A DNA stretch of 64,000 bases from Escherichia coli (GTDB lineage Bacteria; Pseudomonadota; Gammaproteobacteria; Enterobacterales; Enterobacteriaceae): NCBI RefSeq assembly GCF_030013205.1, contig NZ_CP122648.1. One strand, given 5' to 3'. Position numbers and translations under genes: made by a program. Shown one piece after another: positions 2,878 to 47,829 of the stretch; position 1 is the first letter of the stretch; the number at the start of each line of letters is the position of its first letter. The notes below the pieces were generated by a model. It was given only the letters and a program-made list of their open reading frames with translations. It was not told where the DNA came from and searched no databases.

Positions 2878-5800
2878 TCATTTTCCTAATTCTCCAGCTA
2901 AAAGTTCAGCCTGCTTCAAAACAGTCTCTGTGGCGAGCAATGACATATCAGGCGGATAACCATATTTTTTGAGCAGACGTTTTACCACCACGCGAATTTT
3001 TGCTCTTGCTGCTTCTTTCACTGTCCAGTCAAGACTGACATTGTTGCGGATAGCCTCCGTAAGTACGACTGCCAGTTCTCGTAGTTTTTCCTTTTCCATT
3101 AACTCGCGAGCACTGTCGTTATCTGCAACAGCAGAATAGAAGGCATATTCATAAGCGCTGAGGTTTAACTGGCTGGCAAGGCTGTCAGATTCCTGGATAG
3201 TCTTGGCAAGCTTGATTAGCTCATCAATTACCTCCGCTGCGGTCAGTACCTTGTTCTGGTAGCCATTGATTGCAGAGGTCAGCATATCAATCAGTTTTTT
3301 GCCTTGGGTGATACTTTGATTCGAGCGAACCTTGATCTCGTCAGAAAGCAGTTTTTTAAGCGTTTCCAAAGCAATATTTCTGTGTTGGTAATCCTTCATT
3401 TCCTGAAGGAATTCTTCAGAAAGAACGGAAATATCAGGTTTTTGTATCCCAGCAGCGTCAAAAATATCAACAACTTTATCGGTAACCAGAGCCTGATCGA
3501 TAGTCTGTTTTACCCGAACTTCGAGACTGTCATTGTGTTCTTCTTCTGATCCGTCTGAGTTTTCAGTAAATTTATTCAGTCTGGCTTTTACTGCCTGGAA
3601 GAATGCTACTTCGGGTGCCGCTTCCATTGCTTTATCGTGCGGTGTCGCCAATGCAAATGCCTGCGATAAGGCTGCAACCGCAGCGAGGAAACGCATTTTA
3701 CCTTTACCGTTATCCAGCCCTAAAATATGGTTTTCTGATTCAAGAATAATTGTCAGGCGTTGTGAGGTAGTTGCGGCAAAGTAAGCTTTGTAATCGTATC
3801 CATGCATCATGCCTTCCAGGATTTCCAGCTTTTCCTGCATGAGCGTTACGGCTTCTTCCTGAACCTCAGCAGGATCTCCACGTCCACCTGCATCAGAGTA
3901 AAAGGAGAGGGCTTCTTTTAAATCAGAGGCAATGCCCAGATAGTCAACAACCAGACCGCCTATCTTATCTTTATACACACGGTTCACACGGGCAATTGCC
4001 TGCATAAGGTTGTGGCCTTTCATTGGTTTGTCGATATACAGCGTATGCATGCTGGGAGCGTCGAAGCCGGTTAACCACATATCACGCACTATCACCAGTT
4101 TCAGCTTGTCGTCGTCATCCTTCATACGGTTAGCCAGAACCTGACGTTCTTTTTTTGTGGTGTGGTGTTTGGCAATTTCTGGCCCGTCAGCAGCAGAAGA
4201 GGTCATGACGACTTTTATTATACCGTCATTTAAATCATCGCTGTGCCATTCAGGTTTTAAGGCTATGATTTCTTTATATAGTTCAGCAGCAATACGGCGG
4301 GACATGGTAACAATCATGCCCTTACCATGATCGGCATTGGATTTTAAGCGCTGCTCAAAGTGCAGAACCATATCCGCCGCAATCGCTTTAATACGTTTTG
4401 AACTGCCAATCAAACCTTCGATTCTGGCCCATTTAGAACGTTCTTTTTGCGTGAGCGTCAGTTCGTCCTCGTTAAACTCATCATCAAAGTCTTCAATAAG
4501 CTGACGACCTTCATCACTGATGGCAATTTTGGCAAGACGGCTTTCATAAAAGATACGAACTGTTGCACCATCTTCAACGGCCTGCGAGATATCGTAGATA
4601 TCAACATAGTTACCAAAAACAGCAGGCGTGTTGACGTCCGTTTTTTCTATGGGGGTTCCGGTAAAGCCGAGATAGGTCGCATTAGGTAAGGCATCACGCA
4701 TATATTTGGCAAAGCCGTAAACGGTGCGTTTACCTGTTACGTTGCCTTCGCTGTCTTTCACGTCAACTTCTTTGGCGCTGAAACCGTACTGGGAACGGTG
4801 TGCTTCATCAGCGATAACGACAATATTGGTTCTGTCTGACAACAACTCATAGATATTGCTGCCATCATCAGGCTGGAATTTTTGAATAGTAGTAAACACC
4901 ACACCGCCAGAGGCGACACGCAAATATTCTTTGAGTTCTTCCCGGTTGTTGGCCTGTTTTGGTGTCTGACGAAGTAGCTGGGTCGCGGAAGAGAACGTAC
5001 CGAATAGCTGATCATCTAAGTCGTTACGGTCAGTAATCACAACAACTGTCGGATTATCCAGCGCCAGCACAATTTTCCCGGTATAAAACACCATCGAAAG
5101 CGATTTACCGGAACCCTGAGTATGCCAGACTACGCCCGCTTTGCGATCTCCGGTTTTTTGCGCATTAACAAGATCTTTACTGTTACGTCCCTGCTGGCGC
5201 AGTGCCACTTCGGCAGAGGGGGAGTCCGCATTCACCGCTGAGGCACGAATAGTGGAAAGAACTGCTGCATTGACCGCGTAGTACTGGTGATAAGCCGCCA
5301 TTTTTTAACAGTACGGATACTGATAATCCCTTTGCTGTCTTCATGTTTGCTGGCCTCAAACACGATAAAGTGGCGGATTATATCCAGCAGCGTTACAGGA
5401 TTAAGCAACCCCTGTAATAAAACTTCAAGCTGTGGTTGGGTACTGGTGGCTTGCGTTTTACCGTTAGCAGTTTTCCACGTCATATAACGACTGAAATCGG
5501 CAGAAACCGTCCCCGCTTTGGCTTCCAGCCCGTCAGATATCACATTAAAAGCATTGTAGTTAAACAGACCGGGGATTTGGTTCTGATAGGTTTTAATCTG
5601 ATTATAGGCACCTGTTACCGTTGCATTTTCGTCAGCGGCATTTTTAAGTTCGATAACGACTAATGGCAGGCCATTGATGAATAAAATAAGATCAGGTCGG
5701 CGGGTATGGTTGCCTTCTTTGATGGTGAGCTGATTAATGACCAGAAATGCATTATTAGTGGGATCGTTAAAGTCGATCAGGCTGGCCAGTTCTCCTTGTG

Positions 5801-35404: not shown

Positions 35405-35499
35405 GTTGCAATTCTCCAACGTCTGTATTAATGTTTATACAAATGAGTTTGATTTGGGGCATCCGTCGCAAGAAATACCCCAAACAGGGAGATTATCAC

Positions 35500-41580: not shown

Positions 41581-42540
41581 ATGAAAATTTGTATCGACGA
41601 CGGCTCCACCAACATCAAGCTGGCATGGACTGAGAACGGCGAACGCCGCAACGCCATCAGCCCGAACAGCTTCAAGTCGGAATGGTCTGCGCCGTTCGGT
41701 GGCTCGCAGCCTGCGAACTACATGCTTGATGGCGTGCGCTATGGTTTTGATCCGGTCAGCGATCGCTTTGTCCAGACGACCGACACGCAATACCAGTACA
41801 GCGATGTGAATGTCATTGCCATTCATCACGCGCTGGTCAAATCAGGCATCACGCCTCAGGAGGTGGATGTGGTTGTCACCCTGCCACTGAGCGAGTATTT
41901 CGACACAAACGCACAGCCAGACATGGCCAACATCAACCGCAAAAAAGCGAACGTTATGCGCCCGGTGGAGTACCAGAACGGCGAAGCATTCACTATCCGT
42001 AACGTGCGGGTTATGCCTGAATCCATTCCGGCTGGTTTTAAGGCACTGGCTGACATGAGTCCGTTTGAATCCCTGCTGATTGTGGATTTGGGCGGAACCA
42101 CGCTGGATGTGGCAAAGGTTCAGGGGCAACTGGCAGGTATCAGCCAGGTGTTTTGCGATCCACACGTAGGCGTTTCTCTGATGGCTGATGCCGTGCTGTC
42201 GGTGATGGCCACTAACGGTATGCGTACCAGTCACCACATCGCCAATACCATTATTGAGCACCGTCACGATGAAGCCTGGCTACGCCAGCACATTCACAAT
42301 GACGCGCATTACAACAGCCTGATGGCGGTTATTCGTGAAAAGGAGGAAACACTGAAACAACGCGTGATCCGCGCGCTGGCGGGTTTTTCGGGTTACGGGC
42401 GGGTGATGGTTGTAGGTGGAGGAGCGGAGATTGTGGCACCCGCTATCCGCGAAGCCTGCGGAGTTAATGCGACTTTCATCGCGGACGGGGTGCCACAGTT
42501 TGCTCTGGTTAATGGGCTGTACGCAATGGACAAGGAGTAA
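41581..42540 (+). CDS. parM: ParM/StbA-type actin-like segregation ATPase
   Basis: MKICIDDGSTNIKLAWTENG...YSDVNVIAIHHAL...IVDLGGTTLDV...VMVVGGGAEI...; close to plasmid R1 ParM as recalled. Confidence 0.8.
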   Translation: MKICIDDGSTNIKLAWTENGERRNAISPNSFKSEWSAPFGGSQPANYMLDGVRYGFDPVSDRFVQTTDTQYQYSDVNVIAIHHALVKSGITPQEVDVVVTLPLSEYFDTNAQPDMANINRKKANVMRPVEYQNGEAFTIRNVRVMPESIPAGFKALADMSPFESLLIVDLGGTTLDVAKVQGQLAGISQVFCDPHVGVSLMADAVLSVMATNGMRTSHHIANTIIEHRHDEAWLRQHIHNDAHYNSLMAVIREKEETLKQRVIRALAGFSGYGRVMVVGGGAEIVAPAIREACGVNATFIADGVPQFALVNGLYAMDKE

Positions 42541-42544
42541 ATCA

Positions 42545-42859
42545 ATGACGACACCAACCAGACGGATAAGTTTCTATCTGAAGCCCGCCGTCGTCAAGAG
42601 CGAACGGGAGGCGTGCAGTTACCTCGACAGCCTGCCAGCCTCCGAACGCAGCCGCGCACAACGCGCGGCTTTTCTGGCCGGACTGGCTCTTATAAAACGC
42701 ATCCCCGCGTTGGCGTATTCGCTGGCAGAATGGTCAGAAGACGAAATAAGGATGCCACCGCTACCAGTACAGCCTGAAAAACCGGCGAAACCAGCAGCAG
42801 ACAGCGCCCCCCATATGCAGCAGGTGAAGAAGAATATTCAGGCGTTTTTTCCGAAGTGA
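42545..42859 (+). CDS. parR: ParR-type centromere-binding adaptor
   Basis: MTTPTRRISFYLKPAVVKSEREACSYLDSLPASERSRAQRAAFLAGLAL... resembles R1 ParR (ribbon-helix-helix N-terminus). Confidence 0.7.
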   Translation: MTTPTRRISFYLKPAVVKSEREACSYLDSLPASERSRAQRAAFLAGLALIKRIPALAYSLAEWSEDEIRMPPLPVQPEKPAKPAADSAPHMQQVKKNIQAFFPK

Positions 42860-43532: not shown

Positions 43533-43533
43533 G

Positions 43534-43580
43534 AAAACCCGGAACGGGTGCGCAAATTCTTTGTGCGCCCGTTCCGGGTT
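43534..43580 (-). terminator. Long stem-loop terminator (19-bp stem, two G-U wobbles) downstream of the ogr-like gene
   Basis: AACCCGGAACGGGTGCGCAAA-TTC-TTTGTGCGCCCGTTCCGGGTT; a U-rich tract follows on the minus-strand transcript (approximate coordinates). Confidence 0.6.
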
Positions 43581-43600
43581 GGACAAGCGAAGCGCGTCAG

Positions 43601-43858
43601 CTATCCGGCCTGCAACAACTCCAGAGCCATTTGTTTTTCTTCCGGACGCATCCGCTCAATCAACAGCTTTAACACACCATTCTCCAGCCCGCTGGGCACC
43701 AGTGTGTGCGAGTAGGTCAGATTCATCACCCAGGTATGTCCGCACTCGAGACGGGTGCAACGGTAATACACATCAGCAAACTGATCGGTTTTCCAGGCTG
43801 TTTTCTCAATCACTGCATGTGCACCGCAGCAATGACATCGCGCTTTCTGTCTGCGCAT
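43601..43858 (-). CDS. ogr: Ogr/Delta-family zinc-finger late-gene activator
   Basis: MRRQKARCHCCGAHAVIEK...YYRCTRLECGHTW... (C-x2-C ... C-x4-C). Confidence 0.7.
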   Translation of the reverse strand: MRRQKARCHCCGAHAVIEKTAWKTDQFADVYYRCTRLECGHTWVMNLTYSHTLVPSGLENGVLKLLIERMRPEEKQMALELLQAG

Positions 43859-43923
43859 TTTCCACCTCCCGGAACAGCGTTTTACTGCCACCGATTTTAC
43901 CCGCTCTTTCCCCATACCGCACA

Positions 43924-44958
43924 TCACTCCGTGGATTCGTTAAATTCAAGAATAAATTCCACCTGCCCCAGCCGTCTGATATCCGGATCGCTGTTGATCC
44001 CCTCCATAATCAGACGGCGCATCGGAATAACCTCATCTCTGTAATATGCCTCGCGGGATTTCAGTGGGTCACCAAGCCCGGCCGTATTTGCGGGAATGAT
44101 GCCGGCAAGTCCGGGTGGAAAACGGTGCGCAACGAGCTGATCCTGGGCACTGATGGTTTTTATATTCAGGAACTCATCTTTTGTGCCTGAATCCCCGATA
44201 GGGATCACCTTAACGCCTTCTTTGTCTCCGCCCGGTATATTGATAAACATGGATTTAAAATTGCCCGCCCCTTTTGACGCCTCTATCTTTTTACGGAATT
44301 CCGCCTCGAGCTCGGGATCCATGTCCGGGTCAGTGGAATACAGGATATAACCAAGATGTGCGCCGTTCTTGTAATACTTGCGGCGAAAGCGGGTGGCATC
44401 CACATTCAGCATGGCGGATTCCATCCCGTGAATATAATCCGGGACACCGTAAACCTGCTGTTGCGGGTCATAAATGGCCACGAACACCACTTCGCCTGGC
44501 GGGTAAACGAGATCTTCCAGTGCTGCCTGCACAATCACCGTGCCACCCTCGTTGTTACGCCGCAGGTACAGAGAAGGTAACGTATGCAGGCGCACCACGC
44601 GACCGAAGCCATTGCGCACTTTAAGCAACCCCATATCCCCGAATATCAGCAGATTGGTTACTGCTGCCGCCATGGCGGCGTGTGTCATACCACCACCACC
44701 CCGAAAACCCTGCATGATCATATTGACGCGCGCACGCAATACCGCGCCGTGATACGGTGCGATATTGGACAACATGGCGAGATCCATGCGCTCAATTGGC
44801 GGCGTGTACCAGCCGTTATAGCCATCCCAGAGCGAGCCGTAATAACAGCCCCATGCAGCGACCGGTTCCGGGTCACCAAATTCAATAAACGTCATTTTGC
44901 TGGCTGTTTTTTTTGCCACGCCATCGTGTAACACGGGGTATTTTTTCTTTTTACTCAT
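43924..44958 (-). CDS. Q: Portal protein (P2 gpQ-like)
   Basis: 344-aa ORF MSKKKKYPVLHDGVAKKTASKMTFIEFGDPEPVAAWGCYYG...; size and position as in P2. Confidence 0.85.
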   Translation of the reverse strand: MSKKKKYPVLHDGVAKKTASKMTFIEFGDPEPVAAWGCYYGSLWDGYNGWYTPPIERMDLAMLSNIAPYHGAVLRARVNMIMQGFRGGGGMTHAAMAAAVTNLLIFGDMGLLKVRNGFGRVVRLHTLPSLYLRRNNEGGTVIVQAALEDLVYPPGEVVFVAIYDPQQQVYGVPDYIHGMESAMLNVDATRFRRKYYKNGAHLGYILYSTDPDMDPELEAEFRKKIEASKGAGNFKSMFINIPGGDKEGVKVIPIGDSGTKDEFLNIKTISAQDQLVAHRFPPGLAGIIPANTAGLGDPLKSREAYYRDEVIPMRRLIMEGINSDPDIRRLGQVEFILEFNESTE

Positions 44959-46738
44959 CTGACAGGATCCATGTTGATTTGCGCTTGTGCTTATAGTTCA
45001 GGGGTTCATTACTTGCGGCATGAGCTATGGCAAAGAAGATGTCAGCGTGCCCGGTTTCTTCGCTACGTTCGGCGGTGAAAGTGACTTTATTGCCGCTGTT
45101 GGTGGATTCCTGACGAATGGCCAGGAACGATGCCGGAATATCCGTGGCTTCTTCATCCCACTCAATACGGTTGGCGTAAATCAGATCCAGCATCTTCATC
45201 ACCAGGCGGTTTTTGGATTCCACGCTGTAATGAATGGCCACTGTTTCACGGCGGGCAAATCCCTGAACCAGCTCAAAGACACCGTAGCCAAGACCGGTGA
45301 CGTCAATGCCGATAAATGTCATGTTATAGCGCGCCTTAATGCTGCGGATACGCTCTGCCATAAACTGGAATGACATGCTGCGCCAGTGGTGTTTTTCCAG
45401 CACGCGGAATCGTTCTGCCGCAACCAGCGGCGGTGCCAGCACAACAAATGTGGCGTTATCGCCGGAGCGCGCAGGGTCAAAGCCGCCCCACACTTCACGG
45501 TTACCAAATGGCATGGGCTCTTCCGGGTGAAAATCCTCCCACGTACTGACATCAACACCACAACGCACAAGATCATCGAATTTAAAGACGCTCTCTTTGT
45601 CATCCACAAACACACACATAAACAGCATATTGAACGCTGTTTCGTTGTATCGCTCGCGCAGCTCGTTGATGTCAGCAAGGTTAAAGCCGCCGGCAATGGC
45701 ATCTTCCAGCGTAACCACATAGCGCCACTGACCATCCGGACATTCACGCCCACCATCGCGCAGCTCATCAAAGGACGGAAACTCAACCCCTTTTCGTTTC
45801 GGATCGCCTTTGCGCCATTCATCGCCAGACCAGAACGGGTAACCCTGGTGTGTTTTGGATGACGGCGTGGAGAAATAGGTAATGCGCCAGTGTTTATGGG
45901 TGGCCATCCCTGATGCCACTTCATTGAGACGGCGAAAACCGGGGATCCACAGGTATTCATCAATATACAGGTGGCCGCTGTTTGACTGCGCTGTGTTACT
46001 GTTGGTCGCCAGAAAATACAGTTCAGCCAGATTACTTAACTTAACCGGATTGCCTTTAATGGGAATGCCAAACTCTGTTTGTGCAATTTTTACAATATAA
46101 GTACGGAACACTTCGGCCTGACGTTTTGATGCCGATAAAAATATCTGTGTGTCGCCGGTTAATACTGCATCTTCAAATGCCTCAAACGCGAAGTAATACG
46201 TCGCCCCAATCTGGCGGGATTTAAGCAGGTTGCGTACACGGCGGAATTTGTTTTCACGCAGATGCAACTGATAAGCAAACAACTTTTTCGTAAACGGCTC
46301 AAAACTTTCAGCAGTCAGTCCGGAAACGTCATTAGTTTTGCGGGGACGCTCTTTCTTACCTGCACCTTTTTCTCCGCGTTCTTCTTTTCCATAACGGCCA
46401 GGCTGGGGGATGTCCACTCCCATTCGCGCAATCTCAGCCATTCGTTCTGTATGCTTGTTTCTGACCGACATCAGTTTGACGTGATGACCAATCAGGCGAT
46501 CAAGCTCATCGTGTTCTTCCTGGGTCTTATGGTCACGTTCCGCCAGTACAGCGAGACGCCGGGCGATAACATCCTCCACGCCTTCCGTATTGAGCTGCGT
46601 GTACCACTCAAACTTTGTCGCCCAGTAATAAACAATTCGCGGACTGTTCAGTCCGAGTTTCTTTTGTATTTCTTTTGGTGTGTGCCTTTTCAGATAGAGT
46701 GATTTTGCTGCGGCAATCACCTCATCAGAATACGCCAT
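44951..46738 (-). CDS. P: Terminase large (ATPase) subunit (P2 gpP-like)
   Basis: 595-aa ORF with Walker-like KSRQIGATYYFAFEA and a nuclease domain. Confidence 0.85.
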   Translation of the reverse strand: MAYSDEVIAAAKSLYLKRHTPKEIQKKLGLNSPRIVYYWATKFEWYTQLNTEGVEDVIARRLAVLAERDHKTQEEHDELDRLIGHHVKLMSVRNKHTERMAEIARMGVDIPQPGRYGKEERGEKGAGKKERPRKTNDVSGLTAESFEPFTKKLFAYQLHLRENKFRRVRNLLKSRQIGATYYFAFEAFEDAVLTGDTQIFLSASKRQAEVFRTYIVKIAQTEFGIPIKGNPVKLSNLAELYFLATNSNTAQSNSGHLYIDEYLWIPGFRRLNEVASGMATHKHWRITYFSTPSSKTHQGYPFWSGDEWRKGDPKRKGVEFPSFDELRDGGRECPDGQWRYVVTLEDAIAGGFNLADINELRERYNETAFNMLFMCVFVDDKESVFKFDDLVRCGVDVSTWEDFHPEEPMPFGNREVWGGFDPARSGDNATFVVLAPPLVAAERFRVLEKHHWRSMSFQFMAERIRSIKARYNMTFIGIDVTGLGYGVFELVQGFARRETVAIHYSVESKNRLVMKMLDLIYANRIEWDEEATDIPASFLAIRQESTNSGNKVTFTAERSEETGHADIFFAIAHAASNEPLNYKHKRKSTWILSDE

Positions 46739-46822
46739 AAATAAACCTCACCTGCTGATGCAATTTTAATTTATGCATTTTCAGCAAAGGCTTTTTTAAA
46801 AACGAATATCGCTTTTCGGTAT

Positions 46823-46850
46823 TTTTCGGATATATGCGCATATCCGAAAG
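46823..46850. promoter_or_regulatory. Dyad-symmetry element in the divergent P/O late promoter region (candidate Ogr operator)
   Basis: TTTCGGATATATGCGCATATCCGAAA between the divergent terminase and scaffold genes (approximate coordinates). Confidence 0.35.
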
Positions 46851-46932
46851 TACCGGAAATTAATCAGATGACGACGTTTTCATTTCTCCGTTAAATAACG
46901 CCAGTTTAATTTTTATCAGCGGATTAATTCAG

Positions 46933-47829
46933 ATGACGAAGCAGAAAACAGACTGGGTTGTGGTTGCCACATCAGGCCCCACCATCGACGGTCGGGAAAT
47001 TGATCCGAAGTGGCTGACGGATGCCGCCGAGGTTTACAACCCGGACGAGCGAGCCGCCATGCTCTGGCCATATCACGCCGATTCCGGATGGCGTGCCTTC
47101 ACCAATAACTACGGCATTGTTGATGCCCTGAAAGTCGAAAAATTTGGTGAAAAGGTGCAGCTTAAAGCACGCCTGATCCCAAATCGCTTCCTGATTGAAG
47201 CCAATAAGGCCGGGCAGAAACTTTTTACCTCCATTGAAGTGCGGGAAAACTATCTGGGCACGGGCAAATTCTTTGTGTCCGGTATCGCCGTGACGGATAC
47301 CCCAGCCAGCATTAACACTACACGCCTGCAGTTTTCCATGGGGGAAGCCATCCATATGGGCAACGCAGAGGCGCTGAATTTTACGCTGCAGCCTGATGAT
47401 GAGCAGGCCAAGCGCAACTTCTTCTCCCGCTTCTTCTCATCTGACAATCACCAACAGGGAATTTACCAAGCCATGAACGAAGAACAGTTCAGCCAGTTAA
47501 TGGGTGCCATTAATAAAACCAGTGAACGCCTGGACGAGCTGGAAAAAAACGTCGCGCAGTTCAGCGCGAAGGATGCCCCGAAAGATACCGGTGATAACAA
47601 GCCGGAAGGCAGCACCGGCGATCAGGGGCAGGACAACGCAGAACAGAACAACAAGGACGACAAAACCTTCACGCTGACCACCGAGCAGGGCGAAAAGCTG
47701 TTCTCCACAGTGAACGCCATCGCGGAGAAGGTTACCAGTATGGAAACCGCATTTGCTGAACTCAGCAAGGACGCCACGAAGCTGCCGGGCAACAATCCGG
47801 CCGGTGGCGAAACTTTTAACCTGGTGTAA
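46933..47829 (+). CDS. O: Capsid scaffold protein (P2 gpO-like)
   Basis: 298-aa ORF; position and similarity to gpO. Confidence 0.8.
   Translation: MTKQKTDWVVVATSGPTIDGREIDPKWLTDAAEVYNPDERAAMLWPYHADSGWRAFTNNYGIVDALKVEKFGEKVQLKARLIPNRFLIEANKAGQKLFTSIEVRENYLGTGKFFVSGIAVTDTPASINTTRLQFSMGEAIHMGNAEALNFTLQPDDEQAKRNFFSRFFSSDNHQQGIYQAMNEEQFSQLMGAINKTSERLDELEKNVAQFSAKDAPKDTGDNKPEGSTGDQGQDNAEQNNKDDKTFTLTTEQGEKLFSTVNAIAEKVTSMETAFAELSKDATKLPGNNPAGGETFNLV

Follow-up and report, generated by a model that had tools for sequence, protein, structure and literature searches.

In phage P2, late transcription starts from four promoters, and the activator sites of this type follow the consensus TGT-N12-ACA, as cited in PMC3931495. 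The P2 RefSeq record holds a single feature, 'activator binding site; pO, pP promoters' (3057-3087), placed halfway between the mapped starts of P (3016) and O (3127), from which terminase P and portal Q are controlled leftward and scaffold O rightward. The second system to be compared is K139, a Vibrio cholerae phage (Longwoodvirus) with a two-operon late organisation and a zinc-finger gene (Orf13) downstream of the portal gene; its record leaves a dyad in the orf16/orf17 intergenic region unannotated and places the putative promoter P16 over it. As for a late box of the K139/HP1 type, literature searches yielded only P2-centred statements on Ogr-type sites, the K139 and HP1 genome papers, in which an earlier mention is possible, having been beyond reach.

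The locus described here lies in the window, i.e. the whole 64-kb stretch of Escherichia coli DNA that was analysed, and separates two divergent operons, terminase/portal on the minus strand and scaffold on the plus strand, which form the late region of a prophage (Table 1). Judged by its sequence, it is probably the ordinary control region for the two divergent head-gene operons of a P2-family E. coli prophage, an expected temperate-phage control region, whose relevance lies mainly in late-gene activation by Ogr-family zinc-finger proteins. The same gene pair would be controlled as at P2 pP/pO, a single central symmetric site stands equidistant from two weak core promoters in both systems, and both genomes encode a zinc-finger protein of the Ogr/Delta family. 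The preliminary description of this DNA had spoken of a divergent late-promoter region with a dyad, and this is supported by the P2-like plan, by a conserved central site with hexamers at fixed distances on both sides, and by the encoded Ogr/Delta protein. As regards the comparison which it suggested with the late promoters of P2 and 186, the architecture agrees but the motif does not, since no TGT-N12-ACA is present between 46739 and 46932. The prophage half-sites are instead of the form TTCGG(A)TA (TTCGG-N14-CCGAA with outer copies), the predicted site-to-start distance is about 66.5 bp compared with 55-56 bp in P2, that is, about 11 bp further upstream, the ogr-like gene adjoins the portal gene while that of P2 lies at the far end of the genome, and one site per genome is found as against the four late promoters of P2.

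The explanation that we favour, and hold to be probable, is that one control region serves a pair of divergent late promoters, both dependent on an activator, in a P2-family (K139/HP1-lineage) prophage, where a phage regulator would bind a 47-bp element made of four half-sites. The three features by which the comparison defines the P/O region of K139/HP1-lineage Peduoviridae, namely the dyad, the mirrored hexamer geometry and an Orf13-type gene downstream of the portal gene and on its strand, are all found in this prophage.

Table 1. Coordinates of the genes, half-sites, predicted promoter elements and repeated segments in the window
Feature	Position	Strand	Remarks
Ogr/Delta-family zinc-finger protein gene, candidate activator	43601..43858	-	85 aa; Pfam PF04606
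Terminase large subunit gene (terL, gpP-like)	44951..46738	-	ORF list and RefSeq annotation of identical prophage
Control region between the divergent terL and scaffold genes	46739..46932	.	194-bp intergenic; ORF list and RefSeq annotation of identical prophage
Predicted terminase/portal-operon transcription start	46770	-	From geometry
-10-like hexamer GAAAAT, putative terminase/portal promoter	46777..46782	-	Mirror-position nAnAAT
Weak -35-position hexamer TCGTTT, putative terminase/portal promoter	46800..46805	-	Same geometry, opposite strand
Outer-left half-site TTTTCGGTA	46813..46821	.	10 bp from inner-left half-site; read from sequence
Central dyad TTTCGGATAT-ATGCGC-ATATCCGAAA	46824..46849	.	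Two inner half-sites; centre 46836.5
Outer-right half-site TACCGGAAA, mirror of TTTCCGGTA	46851..46859	.	Read from sequence
Upstream copy ATTAATCAGATGACGA	46859..46874	+	Opens mini-ORF; sequence reading, repeat search, shuffles
-35-like hexamer ATGACG, putative scaffold-operon promoter	46868..46873	+	nTGAnn; also mini-ORF start codon
Mini-ORF MTTFSFLR*	46868..46894	+	Judged a by-product of promoter elements
-10-like hexamer TTAAAT, putative scaffold-operon promoter	46891..46896	+	TAnnnT-type; contains mini-ORF stop TAA
Predicted scaffold-operon transcription start	46903	+	A, 7 nt past -10-like hexamer; from geometry
Downstream copy ATTAATTCAGATGACGA	46923..46939	+	Scaffold ribosome-binding region and ATG ACG A
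Capsid scaffolding protein gene (GPO family)	46933..47829	+	Start ATG 46933; ORF list, RefSeq annotation of identical prophage, relatives

The dyad and its half-sites

The dyad reported in the preliminary description between the divergent terminase and scaffold genes was found as described, with perfect 10-bp arms (46824-46833 and 46840-46849) on either side of a 6-bp spacer, and the core TTCGG-N14-CCGAA is matched exactly at 46825-46848. Together with the outer copies, four TTCGG(A)TA half-sites form a 47-bp symmetric element (46813-46859), with two direct half-sites per side, 10 bp apart. A dyad-anchored comparison of 14 lineages located a second CCGAA on the terL side, 5 nt past the inner arm, in 9-12 lineages, and C-GAA at the equivalent outer-right positions on the scaffold side in 10-13. 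Arms of at least 10 bp arose in 1.5% of 2000 dinucleotide-preserving shuffles of 46739-46950, and exact direct repeats of 11 nt or more, such as the one discussed below, in 2.8%. The dyad and the repeat are each unusual for a single region, and neither is beyond chance across the 64 kb scanned in the preliminary description; the dyad was accepted as valid because it is conserved in relatives, a validation which the repeat does not have.

These relatives were retrieved by protein searches, since a blastn search of sequenced phages with the intergenic region, in 'distant' mode, gave no match at DNA level. The arms are constant throughout the E. coli lineage, while the spacer occurs in six forms (ATGCGC, ATACGC, ATGCAC, ATGTGC, ATACAC and ATGCGT). 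Between the terL and scaffold genes, TTCGG-N14-CCGAA is also present in Edwardsiella (terL identity 75%), in lineages L049 and L050 (66-68%), in L058 and the Yersinia massiliensis group (terL identity 55%) and in phages K139, PV94 and phiO18P, with an N13 version in SMHB1, and the motif was likewise found between the terminase and scaffold genes of relatives from uncultured phages. The sequence flanking the dyad is not alignable among these relatives. In K139, the arms match those of the window over TTTCGGATAT-N6-ATATCCGAA despite a scaffold protein identity of 38%, the proteins compared between both phages ranging from 38 to 54%. Between lineages, variants occur in the half-site (GGATA, GGTTA, TTTGGAT) and in the spacing (N13, N14, N24), and the change from GGATA/TATCC to GGTTA/TAACC is symmetric. 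Because of this conservation, the dyad is very probably functional.

The SW3 phage shares with the prophage the portal/terminase/scaffold layout, a regulator gene adjoining the portal gene and, between P and O, half-sites of the CGG/CCG kind; it differs, as do lineages L055/L056, in having half-sites about one helical turn wider (N24) and AATACT as the -10-like hexamer.

A single copy of the dyad is present in the 64-kb window and a single one in the K139 genome, where no additional copies were detected. In the window, no further dyad was found upstream of other late genes at up to two mismatches, except for chance matches in coding sequence, scans with the half-site rose only marginally above background, and the motif was absent from the 34 kb of host DNA. 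One dyad per genome fits a late region arranged as two divergent operons, and this arrangement was preferred to a set of several late promoters like that of P2, no extra dyads having appeared in the window or in K139.

Predicted promoters on both sides of the dyad

The same dyad-anchored comparison was used to establish the promoter geometry. On the scaffold side, every one of the 14 lineages has an nTGAnn hexamer at a distance of 19 nt from the dyad (TG in 14/14), and a -10-like hexamer, the last T of which is kept in 13 of them, follows 17 nt past the -35-like one. On the opposite strand, the same 19-6-17-6 geometry leads through a weak hexamer at the -35 position to an nAnAAT at the mirror position in 11 lineages, the remaining three having TATGAT one nt further out. 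The dyad centre (46836.5) is equidistant (54.5 bp) from the -10-like hexamers on both strands, and each predicted start would lie about 66.5 bp downstream of this centre. Some strains carry an alternative terL-side allele, 36 bp longer in A1, in which TCGTTA, 17 bp and AATAAT are found at an unchanged distance from the dyad.

A leaderless arrangement, with the terL ATG exactly 6 nt past the -10-like hexamer, is found in K139, PV94, the Yersinia group and L051, and independently places the terL-side start there. While terL of K139 is apparently leaderless, the predicted leader of the E. coli prophage is of about 32 nt and contains a Shine-Dalgarno sequence. On the scaffold side of K139, the distance from the dyad to the -35-/-10-like hexamers is the same as in the prophage, and the putative P17 hexamers of the K139 record are no more than 2 nt off the corresponding positions.

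A consensus sigma-70 scan gave no strong promoter in the control region, as would be expected if the promoters were activator-dependent; the scan was blank because these weak hexamers fall short of the rule applied, by which the second position of the -10 element has to be an A. The inverted repeat I1 (GCTGATGCAATTTTAA / TTTAATTTTTATCAGC) was also considered as the two core promoters, and was rejected since the hexamers conserved in the 14 lineages lie 12-14 bp nearer the dyad; according to the dyad-anchored comparison, I1 is located in the two 5' leaders.

In the mechanism proposed, a phage regulator, likeliest the Ogr/Delta-family zinc-finger protein, would bind the 47-bp element and switch on two weak sigma-70 promoters that flank it symmetrically, that of the scaffold operon being formed by ATGACG, 17 bp and TTAAAT, with a start at about 46903, and that of the terminase/portal operon by TCGTTT, 17 bp and GAAAAT on the minus strand, with a start at about 46770. 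If P2 Ogr is taken as the model, the activation would probably be mediated by the alpha subunit of RNA polymerase. Several facts count against this model: the motif is not the P2/186/P4 consensus, its predicted position is -66.5 compared with -55/-56 in P2, and TTAAAT does not have the A that normally occupies the second position of a -10 element.

The candidate activator and other possible binders

The product of the ogr-like gene matches the Ogr_Delta family (PF04606) with an E value of 9.4e-13 and 48.3 bits, the cutoff being 26.3, and its translation contains cysteines, in keeping with a C4 zinc finger of the Ogr/Delta family. In every fetched relative with a terL identity of at least 54% and a locus extending as far as the ogr-like gene, this gene is syntenic, downstream of the portal gene. 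Homologs are present in K139 (orf13, 'zinc-finger protein'), HP1, HP2, F108, phiO18P and SMHB1, and the closest sequenced phages by this protein (46-52% identity) are Irrigatiovirus, Cronobacter phage ESSI-2 with the related Escherichia ESSI2_ev phages, and Yersinia phage vB_YenM_324. Moreover, five DNA-binding regulators are predicted for the prophage, and for this one alone could homologs be detected in K139, HP1 and phiO18P. With tblastn, no P2- or 186-type record was retrieved at E <= 1e-3, the protein being too diverged from P2 Ogr for such detection, so that extrapolation from P2 Ogr is confined to Pfam-level homology and synteny. On this basis, the Ogr/Delta-family protein is most likely the binder of the dyad, and would act as in P2. 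The literature searches, which missed several key papers, found no experimental binding data for this Ogr-like subfamily.

The dyad could also be a protein site for the divergent promoters with another binder, either a conserved gamma-proteobacterial host factor or a different phage regulator, e.g. a late-gene repressor, which we regard as rather unlikely. In favour of such a binder, the dyad arms are identical in Vibrio and Escherichia phages although the Ogr-like proteins of these phages share only about 46% identity, a fact which counts against our model and which a conserved host factor would also explain; in addition, the motif is unlike the known Ogr/B/Delta site, and binding by the Ogr-like protein is itself a prediction. 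Nevertheless, the C-like HTH, Cox-like, MarR-like and Rrf2-like regulators of the prophage, unlike the Ogr-like protein, have no detectable homolog in K139, HP1 or phiO18P, and the motif was not seen in the host DNA of the window. Furthermore, half-site and spacing shift between lineages, as described above, for which a co-evolving protein encoded by the phage is an easier explanation than a fixed host factor. No E. coli regulator with a site like this dyad is known to us.

A wider proposal can be made, in which our confidence is about evenly balanced. The K139/HP1 lineage, including this undescribed prophage group of E. coli and E. albertii, would have a 'late box' of its own, made of four TTCGGATA-type half-sites with 10-bp phasing and a TTCGG-N14-CCGAA core, read by a distinct Orf13-type subfamily of Ogr/Delta proteins at about -66, one helical turn upstream of the P2 TGT-N12-ACA box, one copy per genome driving all late transcription through a divergent promoter pair, one member of which would in several lineages yield a leaderless terminase mRNA. 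In this context, TTCGG-N14-CCGAA combined with -35-/-10-like hexamers at fixed spacing would provide a simple, portable annotation signature for finding late promoters in P2-family prophages of the K139/HP1 type, where a search with the P2 consensus TGT-N12-ACA would fail.

The repeated segment and the mini-ORF

The preliminary description had also noticed that a segment of some 20 bp with the start of the scaffold gene is repeated about 65 bp upstream, where it opens an 8-codon mini-ORF. Both elements are present: the exact 11-mer TCAGATGACGA occurs at 46864-46874 and 46929-46939, 65 bp apart from start to start, and when one indel is allowed the repeat grows to ATTAATCAGATGACGA and ATTAATTCAGATGACGA. 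Its absence from relatives had been named as an argument against it; the repeat is confined to the E. coli/E. albertii lineage, and no resemblance between the two segments is seen in Edwardsiella, L049/L050, Yersinia or K139. The two copies, moreover, change independently within the E. coli lineage. The local duplication that had been suggested is possible, and nothing supports a function for it; from these comparisons, the repeat is to be regarded as a lineage-specific accident or a small old duplication without detectable function.

The mini-ORF (ATG ACG ACG TTT TCA TTT CTC CGT TAA) comprises 8 codons and a stop, its ATG sitting in the -35-like hexamer and its TAA in the -10-like one. As it runs from one hexamer to the other, it lies upstream of the scaffold-operon start that the comparative promoter assignment predicts. 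According to the sequence comparison, what looks like a 'mini-gene' almost certainly consists of no more than the -35 and -10 elements of the promoter, translated as if they were coding, and in the proposed mechanism it would be a by-product of them.

The preliminary description had offered an upstream leader peptide as one reading. In this case, translation of the mini-ORF would control scaffold expression, for instance by melting a duplex of 46858-46871 with 46916-46929 in which the scaffold ribosome-binding site is masked. Like the leader peptides of bacterial operons of the attenuation type, e.g. pheL in the same window, the mini-ORF is very short, has a weak Shine-Dalgarno sequence and stands directly upstream of a gene; the reading frame is uninterrupted in all the E. 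coli-lineage variants that were compared, and likewise in Edwardsiella and L050, its weak GGA-type Shine-Dalgarno context is the same as that of the scaffold gene, and the two segments are linked by an imperfect inverted repeat (I2, 86% complementary). It is, however, predicted to be untranscribed, for it fills exactly the interval between the hexamers, and no gene or promoter precedes it on the same strand; its length is set automatically by ATGnnn-17 bp-TTAAAT, and neither regulatory codons nor alternative RNA structures were detected. The peptides of relatives differ past Met-Thr (MTTFSFLR, MTTFLFLR, MTAFLFPT with a GTG start, MTTYLFRF, MTPAIFTG and MTASLHRR), and the ORF is lost wherever hexamers or spacing differ, as in L049 (18-bp spacer), the Yersinia group, L051, SMHB1 and K139, where CTGAAA at the -35 position leaves a CTG in place of the ATG. 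As for RNA, 46855-46960 folds no better than shuffled sequence (z +0.78), its minimum free energy structure being without the proposed pairing, and 46903-46960 is not more stable either (z +1.37), so that the idea of an attenuator or RNA structure in leader and mini-ORF was rejected. With this evidence, a real leader peptide seems very unlikely.

Scarcely credible, finally, is a role of the dyad as a nucleic-acid structure, either a DNA cruciform or an RNA hairpin acting as terminator or processing site: the perfect 10-bp arms and the complementarity preserved by the symmetric change between lineages would suit it, but neither mRNA should contain the dyad, which is flanked by divergent genes and precedes both predicted starts, it has no T-run and is missed by a terminator scan, its arm sequence is itself conserved across genera beyond mere co-variation, and the flanking direct-repeat half-sites with 10-bp phasing suit protein binding and add nothing to a hairpin.

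Under the preferred reading, in which the mini-ORF is part of an activator-dependent late promoter, a caution for annotation follows, since any promoter of the form ATGnnn-17 bp-TTAAAT is automatically an 8-codon ORF, and calls of tiny ORFs in promoters should be treated with care.

The dyad between the divergent late genes

The stretch carries a P2-family prophage inserted beside pheA in the E. coli chromosome, of which strain ETEC4079 holds an identical, annotated copy. According to that annotation, the early and regulatory genes comprise an integrase, a C-like HTH repressor, a Cox-like gene, a MarR-like gene, a replication endonuclease, ParM/partition genes and an Rrf2-like gene; the minus-strand late genes are an 'ogr/Delta-like zinc finger' gene, then the portal, then the terminase large subunit (terL), and the plus-strand late genes are the scaffold (GPO family), capsid, small terminase and a long series of head-completion, tail and lysis genes. 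The prophage was found in 40 of 5426 complete E. coli genomes and also in E. albertii. A DNA-level search of sequenced phages with the prophage region gave no match, the nearest by scaffold protein being Peduoviridae of the K139, HP1 and phiO18P types (33–39% identity). ParM and partition/stability genes normally serve plasmid segregation; here, they occupy 41581–42859 of a chromosomally integrated prophage, as annotated in the ETEC4079 copy.

The dyad reported in the preliminary description, TTTCGGATAT-ATGCGC-ATATCCGAAA, was confirmed at 46824–46849, with arms perfect over 10 bp. Dyads of this length arose in 1.5% of 2000 dinucleotide-preserving shuffles of 46739–46950, and direct repeats as long as the one near the scaffold start in 2.8%; after a 64-kb scan, neither length is compelling alone. 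Relatives fetched via the terminase protein were compared. Across the E. coli lineage the arms do not change, and the 6-bp spacer has six variants (ATGCGC, ATACGC, ATGCAC, ATGTGC, ATACAC and ATGCGT). The form TTCGG-N14-CCGAA recurs between terL and scaffold in Edwardsiella ictaluri and Edwardsiella anguillarum (terL 75–76% identical; GGATAGTTTCGG-N14-CCGAAACTATCC), in the relative loci L049 and L050 (66–68%), and in L058 and the Yersinia massiliensis group (55%; TTCGGTTA-N8-TAACCGAA), the sequence around it being unalignable with the window. Among phages, K139 has TTTCGGATAT-aacccc-ATATCCGAA, with the same arms as the window, PV94 and phiO18P have TTCGG-N14-CCGAA, SMHB1 an N13 form, HP1 clustered GGATAT half-sites, and F108 ATAnCCG as direct repeats, while a half-site spacing of N24, one helical turn wider, occurs in loci L055 and L056 and in Salmonella phage SW3. 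The dyad is single in the window and in the K139 genome, which is consistent with a late region of two divergent operons only. In phiO18P (L107, 335–358) the conserved dyad contains the annotated scaffold start (locus 349). As the protein match sets in only some 100 bp further downstream, this start is probably placed too far upstream.

Additional half-sites stand 10 bp outside each arm (TTTTCGGTA at 46813–46821 and TACCGGAAA at 46851–46859) and are kept in most of 14 lineages. Since they are conserved at this distance, the functional unit is, judging from sequence, a symmetric element of 47 bp made up of four half-sites. Conserved arms, a free spacer and extra half-sites phased at 10 bp are typical of the site of a multimeric DNA-binding protein; an RNA or DNA hairpin does not fit these features.

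Promoter geometry

Fourteen distinct lineages were aligned with the dyad as anchor. On the scaffold side, the dyad is always followed by 19 nt and then by an nTGAnn hexamer (ATGACG, ATGACA, CTGAAA, ATGAAA, GTGAAA, ATGCAC and others), with TG in all 14. A -10-like hexamer (TTAAAT, TATGGT, TATGTT, TTTACT, TACACT, AATACT or TAGCCT) lies 17 nt beyond it, its final T kept in 13 of the 14; L049, the sole exception, has a spacer of 18 nt. The terminase side has the same 19-6-17-6 spacing, ending in GAAAAT, GAGAAT, AAAAAT, CAAAAT, CATAAT, TACACT, TACTAT or, 1 nt further, TATGAT. In K139 (L105, 3313–3330), PV94 (L111), the Yersinia group (L019, L062) and L051, the terL ATG lies exactly 6 nt past this hexamer, implying a terL mRNA that would be leaderless. 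A transcript without a leader, beginning at the A of AUG, needs just this gap, which is independent support for regarding the hexamer as the -10 element. Unlike these four lineages, the E. coli and Edwardsiella prophages have a terL leader of about 30–40 nt with a Shine-Dalgarno sequence. The putative P17 hexamers of the K139 record lie at most 2 nt from those assigned here. Thus, the conserved dyad and the fixed hexamer geometry in 14 lineages support the earlier interpretation of the region as promoters with a dyad.

Late-gene and predicted promoter features of the prophage
Feature	Coordinates	Strand	Basis
ogr-like gene	43601-43858	-	
portal	43924-44958	-	
terL	44951-46738	-	
scaffold	46933-47829	+	
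scaffold operon -35-like ATGACG	46868-46873	+	dyad-anchored geometry
scaffold operon -10-like TTAAAT	46891-46896	+	dyad-anchored geometry
scaffold operon predicted start, A	46903	+	predicted from geometry
terminase/portal operon -35-position TCGTTT	46805-46800	-	dyad-anchored geometry
terminase/portal operon -10-like GAAAAT	46782-46777	-	dyad-anchored geometry
terminase/portal operon predicted start	46770	-	predicted from geometry

On the terminase side, the leader (equivalent to about 46739–46805) exists as an alternative, mosaic allele in L003, L004, L005 and L029–L035, from E. coli strains FHI_NMBU_10, MB07081 and Z1324SEC0014 and IMG/VR contigs. Its sequence is different and 36 bp longer in alignment A1 (the L039 form is shorter), with TTACGGAACG present twice; its junction with the common sequence lies immediately to the left of the outer half-site, and it retains TCGTTA-17-AATAAT at an unchanged distance from the dyad. 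An imperfect inverted repeat, GCTGATGCAATTTTAA / TTTAATTTTTATCAGC (46754–46769 and 46905–46920), is also centred on the dyad. Under this promoter assignment it spans roughly +2 to +18 in each of the two predicted mRNAs, and therefore both late leaders would open with a similar A/T-rich TTWAAWTT..ATCAGC, of which Edwardsiella leaders share only AATCA(G/A).

The mini-ORF and the repeated segment

The eight-codon ORF of the preliminary description is present (ATG ACG ACG TTT TCA TTT CTC CGT TAA, 46868–46894). Its ATG forms bases 1–3 of the -35-like hexamer, and the -10-like one contains its TAA. A promoter of the form ATGnnn-17-TTAAAT always yields an ORF of exactly eight codons and a stop, which accounts for its presence or absence among relatives: it appears as MTPAIFTG in Edwardsiella, MTASLHRR in L050 and MTTYLFRF in L042; L049, the Yersinia group, L051 and SMHB1 have lost it, and K139 has CTG at the ATG position. 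A leader peptide, as formerly proposed, is unlikely, since the ORF precedes the predicted start of the scaffold operon, gene annotation and a promoter scan gave no same-strand gene or promoter upstream of it, and neither the predicted leader nor a longer hypothetical transcript including the ORF folds more stably than shuffled controls. Moreover, peptide conservation stops after Met-Thr.

The repeat was likewise found as an exact 11-mer, TCAGATGACGA, at 46864 and 46929, 65 bp apart, extending to ATTAAT(T)CAGATGACGA if one indel is allowed. No resemblance between the copies was seen in Edwardsiella, L049, L050, Yersinia or K139, and within the E. coli/E. albertii lineage they vary independently (CAGATGACGAC, CAGGTGACGGC and CCGGATGACGAC upstream; CAGATGACGAAG, CAGATGTCGAAA and CAGATGCCGAAA downstream), the exact 11-mer occurring, among the strains compared, only where the scaffold gene opens Met-Thr. 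The ATGAC part is dictated by the conserved -35-like hexamer, and the remaining ATTAAT(T)CAG may have arisen by chance or by an old duplication of small size. The suggested local duplication is incidental at best, with no sign of selection on repetition itself in the relatives compared.

The candidate activator and the relation to P2

A single activator site serving both divergent head-gene late promoters is a well-known feature of P2-family phages. The P2 reference record has one 'activator binding site; pO, pP promoters' (3057–3087), midway between the mapped starts of P (3016) and O (3127), at -56 and -55. P2 late promoters require the zinc-finger protein Ogr and have TGT-N12-ACA in common (PMC3931495). 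The likeness to P2 raised earlier holds for the central site and the divergent promoters; it fails for the motif, TGT-N12-ACA being absent from the terL/scaffold intergenic region of the window, and for the distance, the predicted centre at about -66.5 being roughly one helical turn further upstream. The window's site is the K139/HP1-lineage version of this element in an undescribed E. coli prophage group, and its conserved four-half-site box and fixed geometry may be previously undescribed.

The dyad binder is best explained as the Ogr-like protein, which would, as a multimer, bind the four half-sites and activate both weak divergent promoters. This protein is favoured because it scores above the Pfam Ogr_Delta threshold, its gene lies downstream of the portal in all fetched relatives whose terL is at least 54% identical and whose locus extends that far, and homologs exist in K139 (orf13, 'zinc-finger protein'), HP1, HP2, F108, phiO18P and SMHB1, although P2 Ogr is too diverged for tblastn to link the two. 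A host factor or another phage regulator is a serious, if rather improbable, rival; among the predicted DNA-binding regulators of the prophage, only the Ogr-like protein has a detectable homolog in K139, HP1 and phiO18P. In HP1 (L114; 10447–10650, minus strand) and HP2 the homolog is an unannotated ORF between the T31 terminator and the portal, 34–36% identical to the Ogr-like protein.

The 65-bp gap between portal and ogr-like genes (43859–43923) contains CGGTAT, CGGGTA and TCGGTG motifs resembling half-sites and a TAAAAT hexamer, and may be the regulator's own, possibly autoregulated, promoter. The convergent Rrf2-like and ogr-like genes have between them a long GC-rich inverted repeat, AACCCGGAACGGGTGCGCA...TGCGCCCGTTCCGGGTT (43533–43600), probably a terminator acting in both directions, of which a terminator scan caught only part. 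Within the long late operon, a strong terminator-like hairpin (53757–53788; 13-pair stem GCTTAATAAGCC..GGCTTATTAAGC, then a T-rich tail) lies between the M15 peptidase and tail-chaperone genes and is followed by TTGACT; it may mark an internal terminator/promoter boundary. Finally, the divergent C-like repressor and Cox-like genes are separated by 95 bp, and this gap holds TGTATTAATGTTTATACA (35424–35441), a perfect TGTAT-N8-ATACA dyad that fits TGT-N12-ACA as well; it is probably the immunity operator rather than a late promoter.
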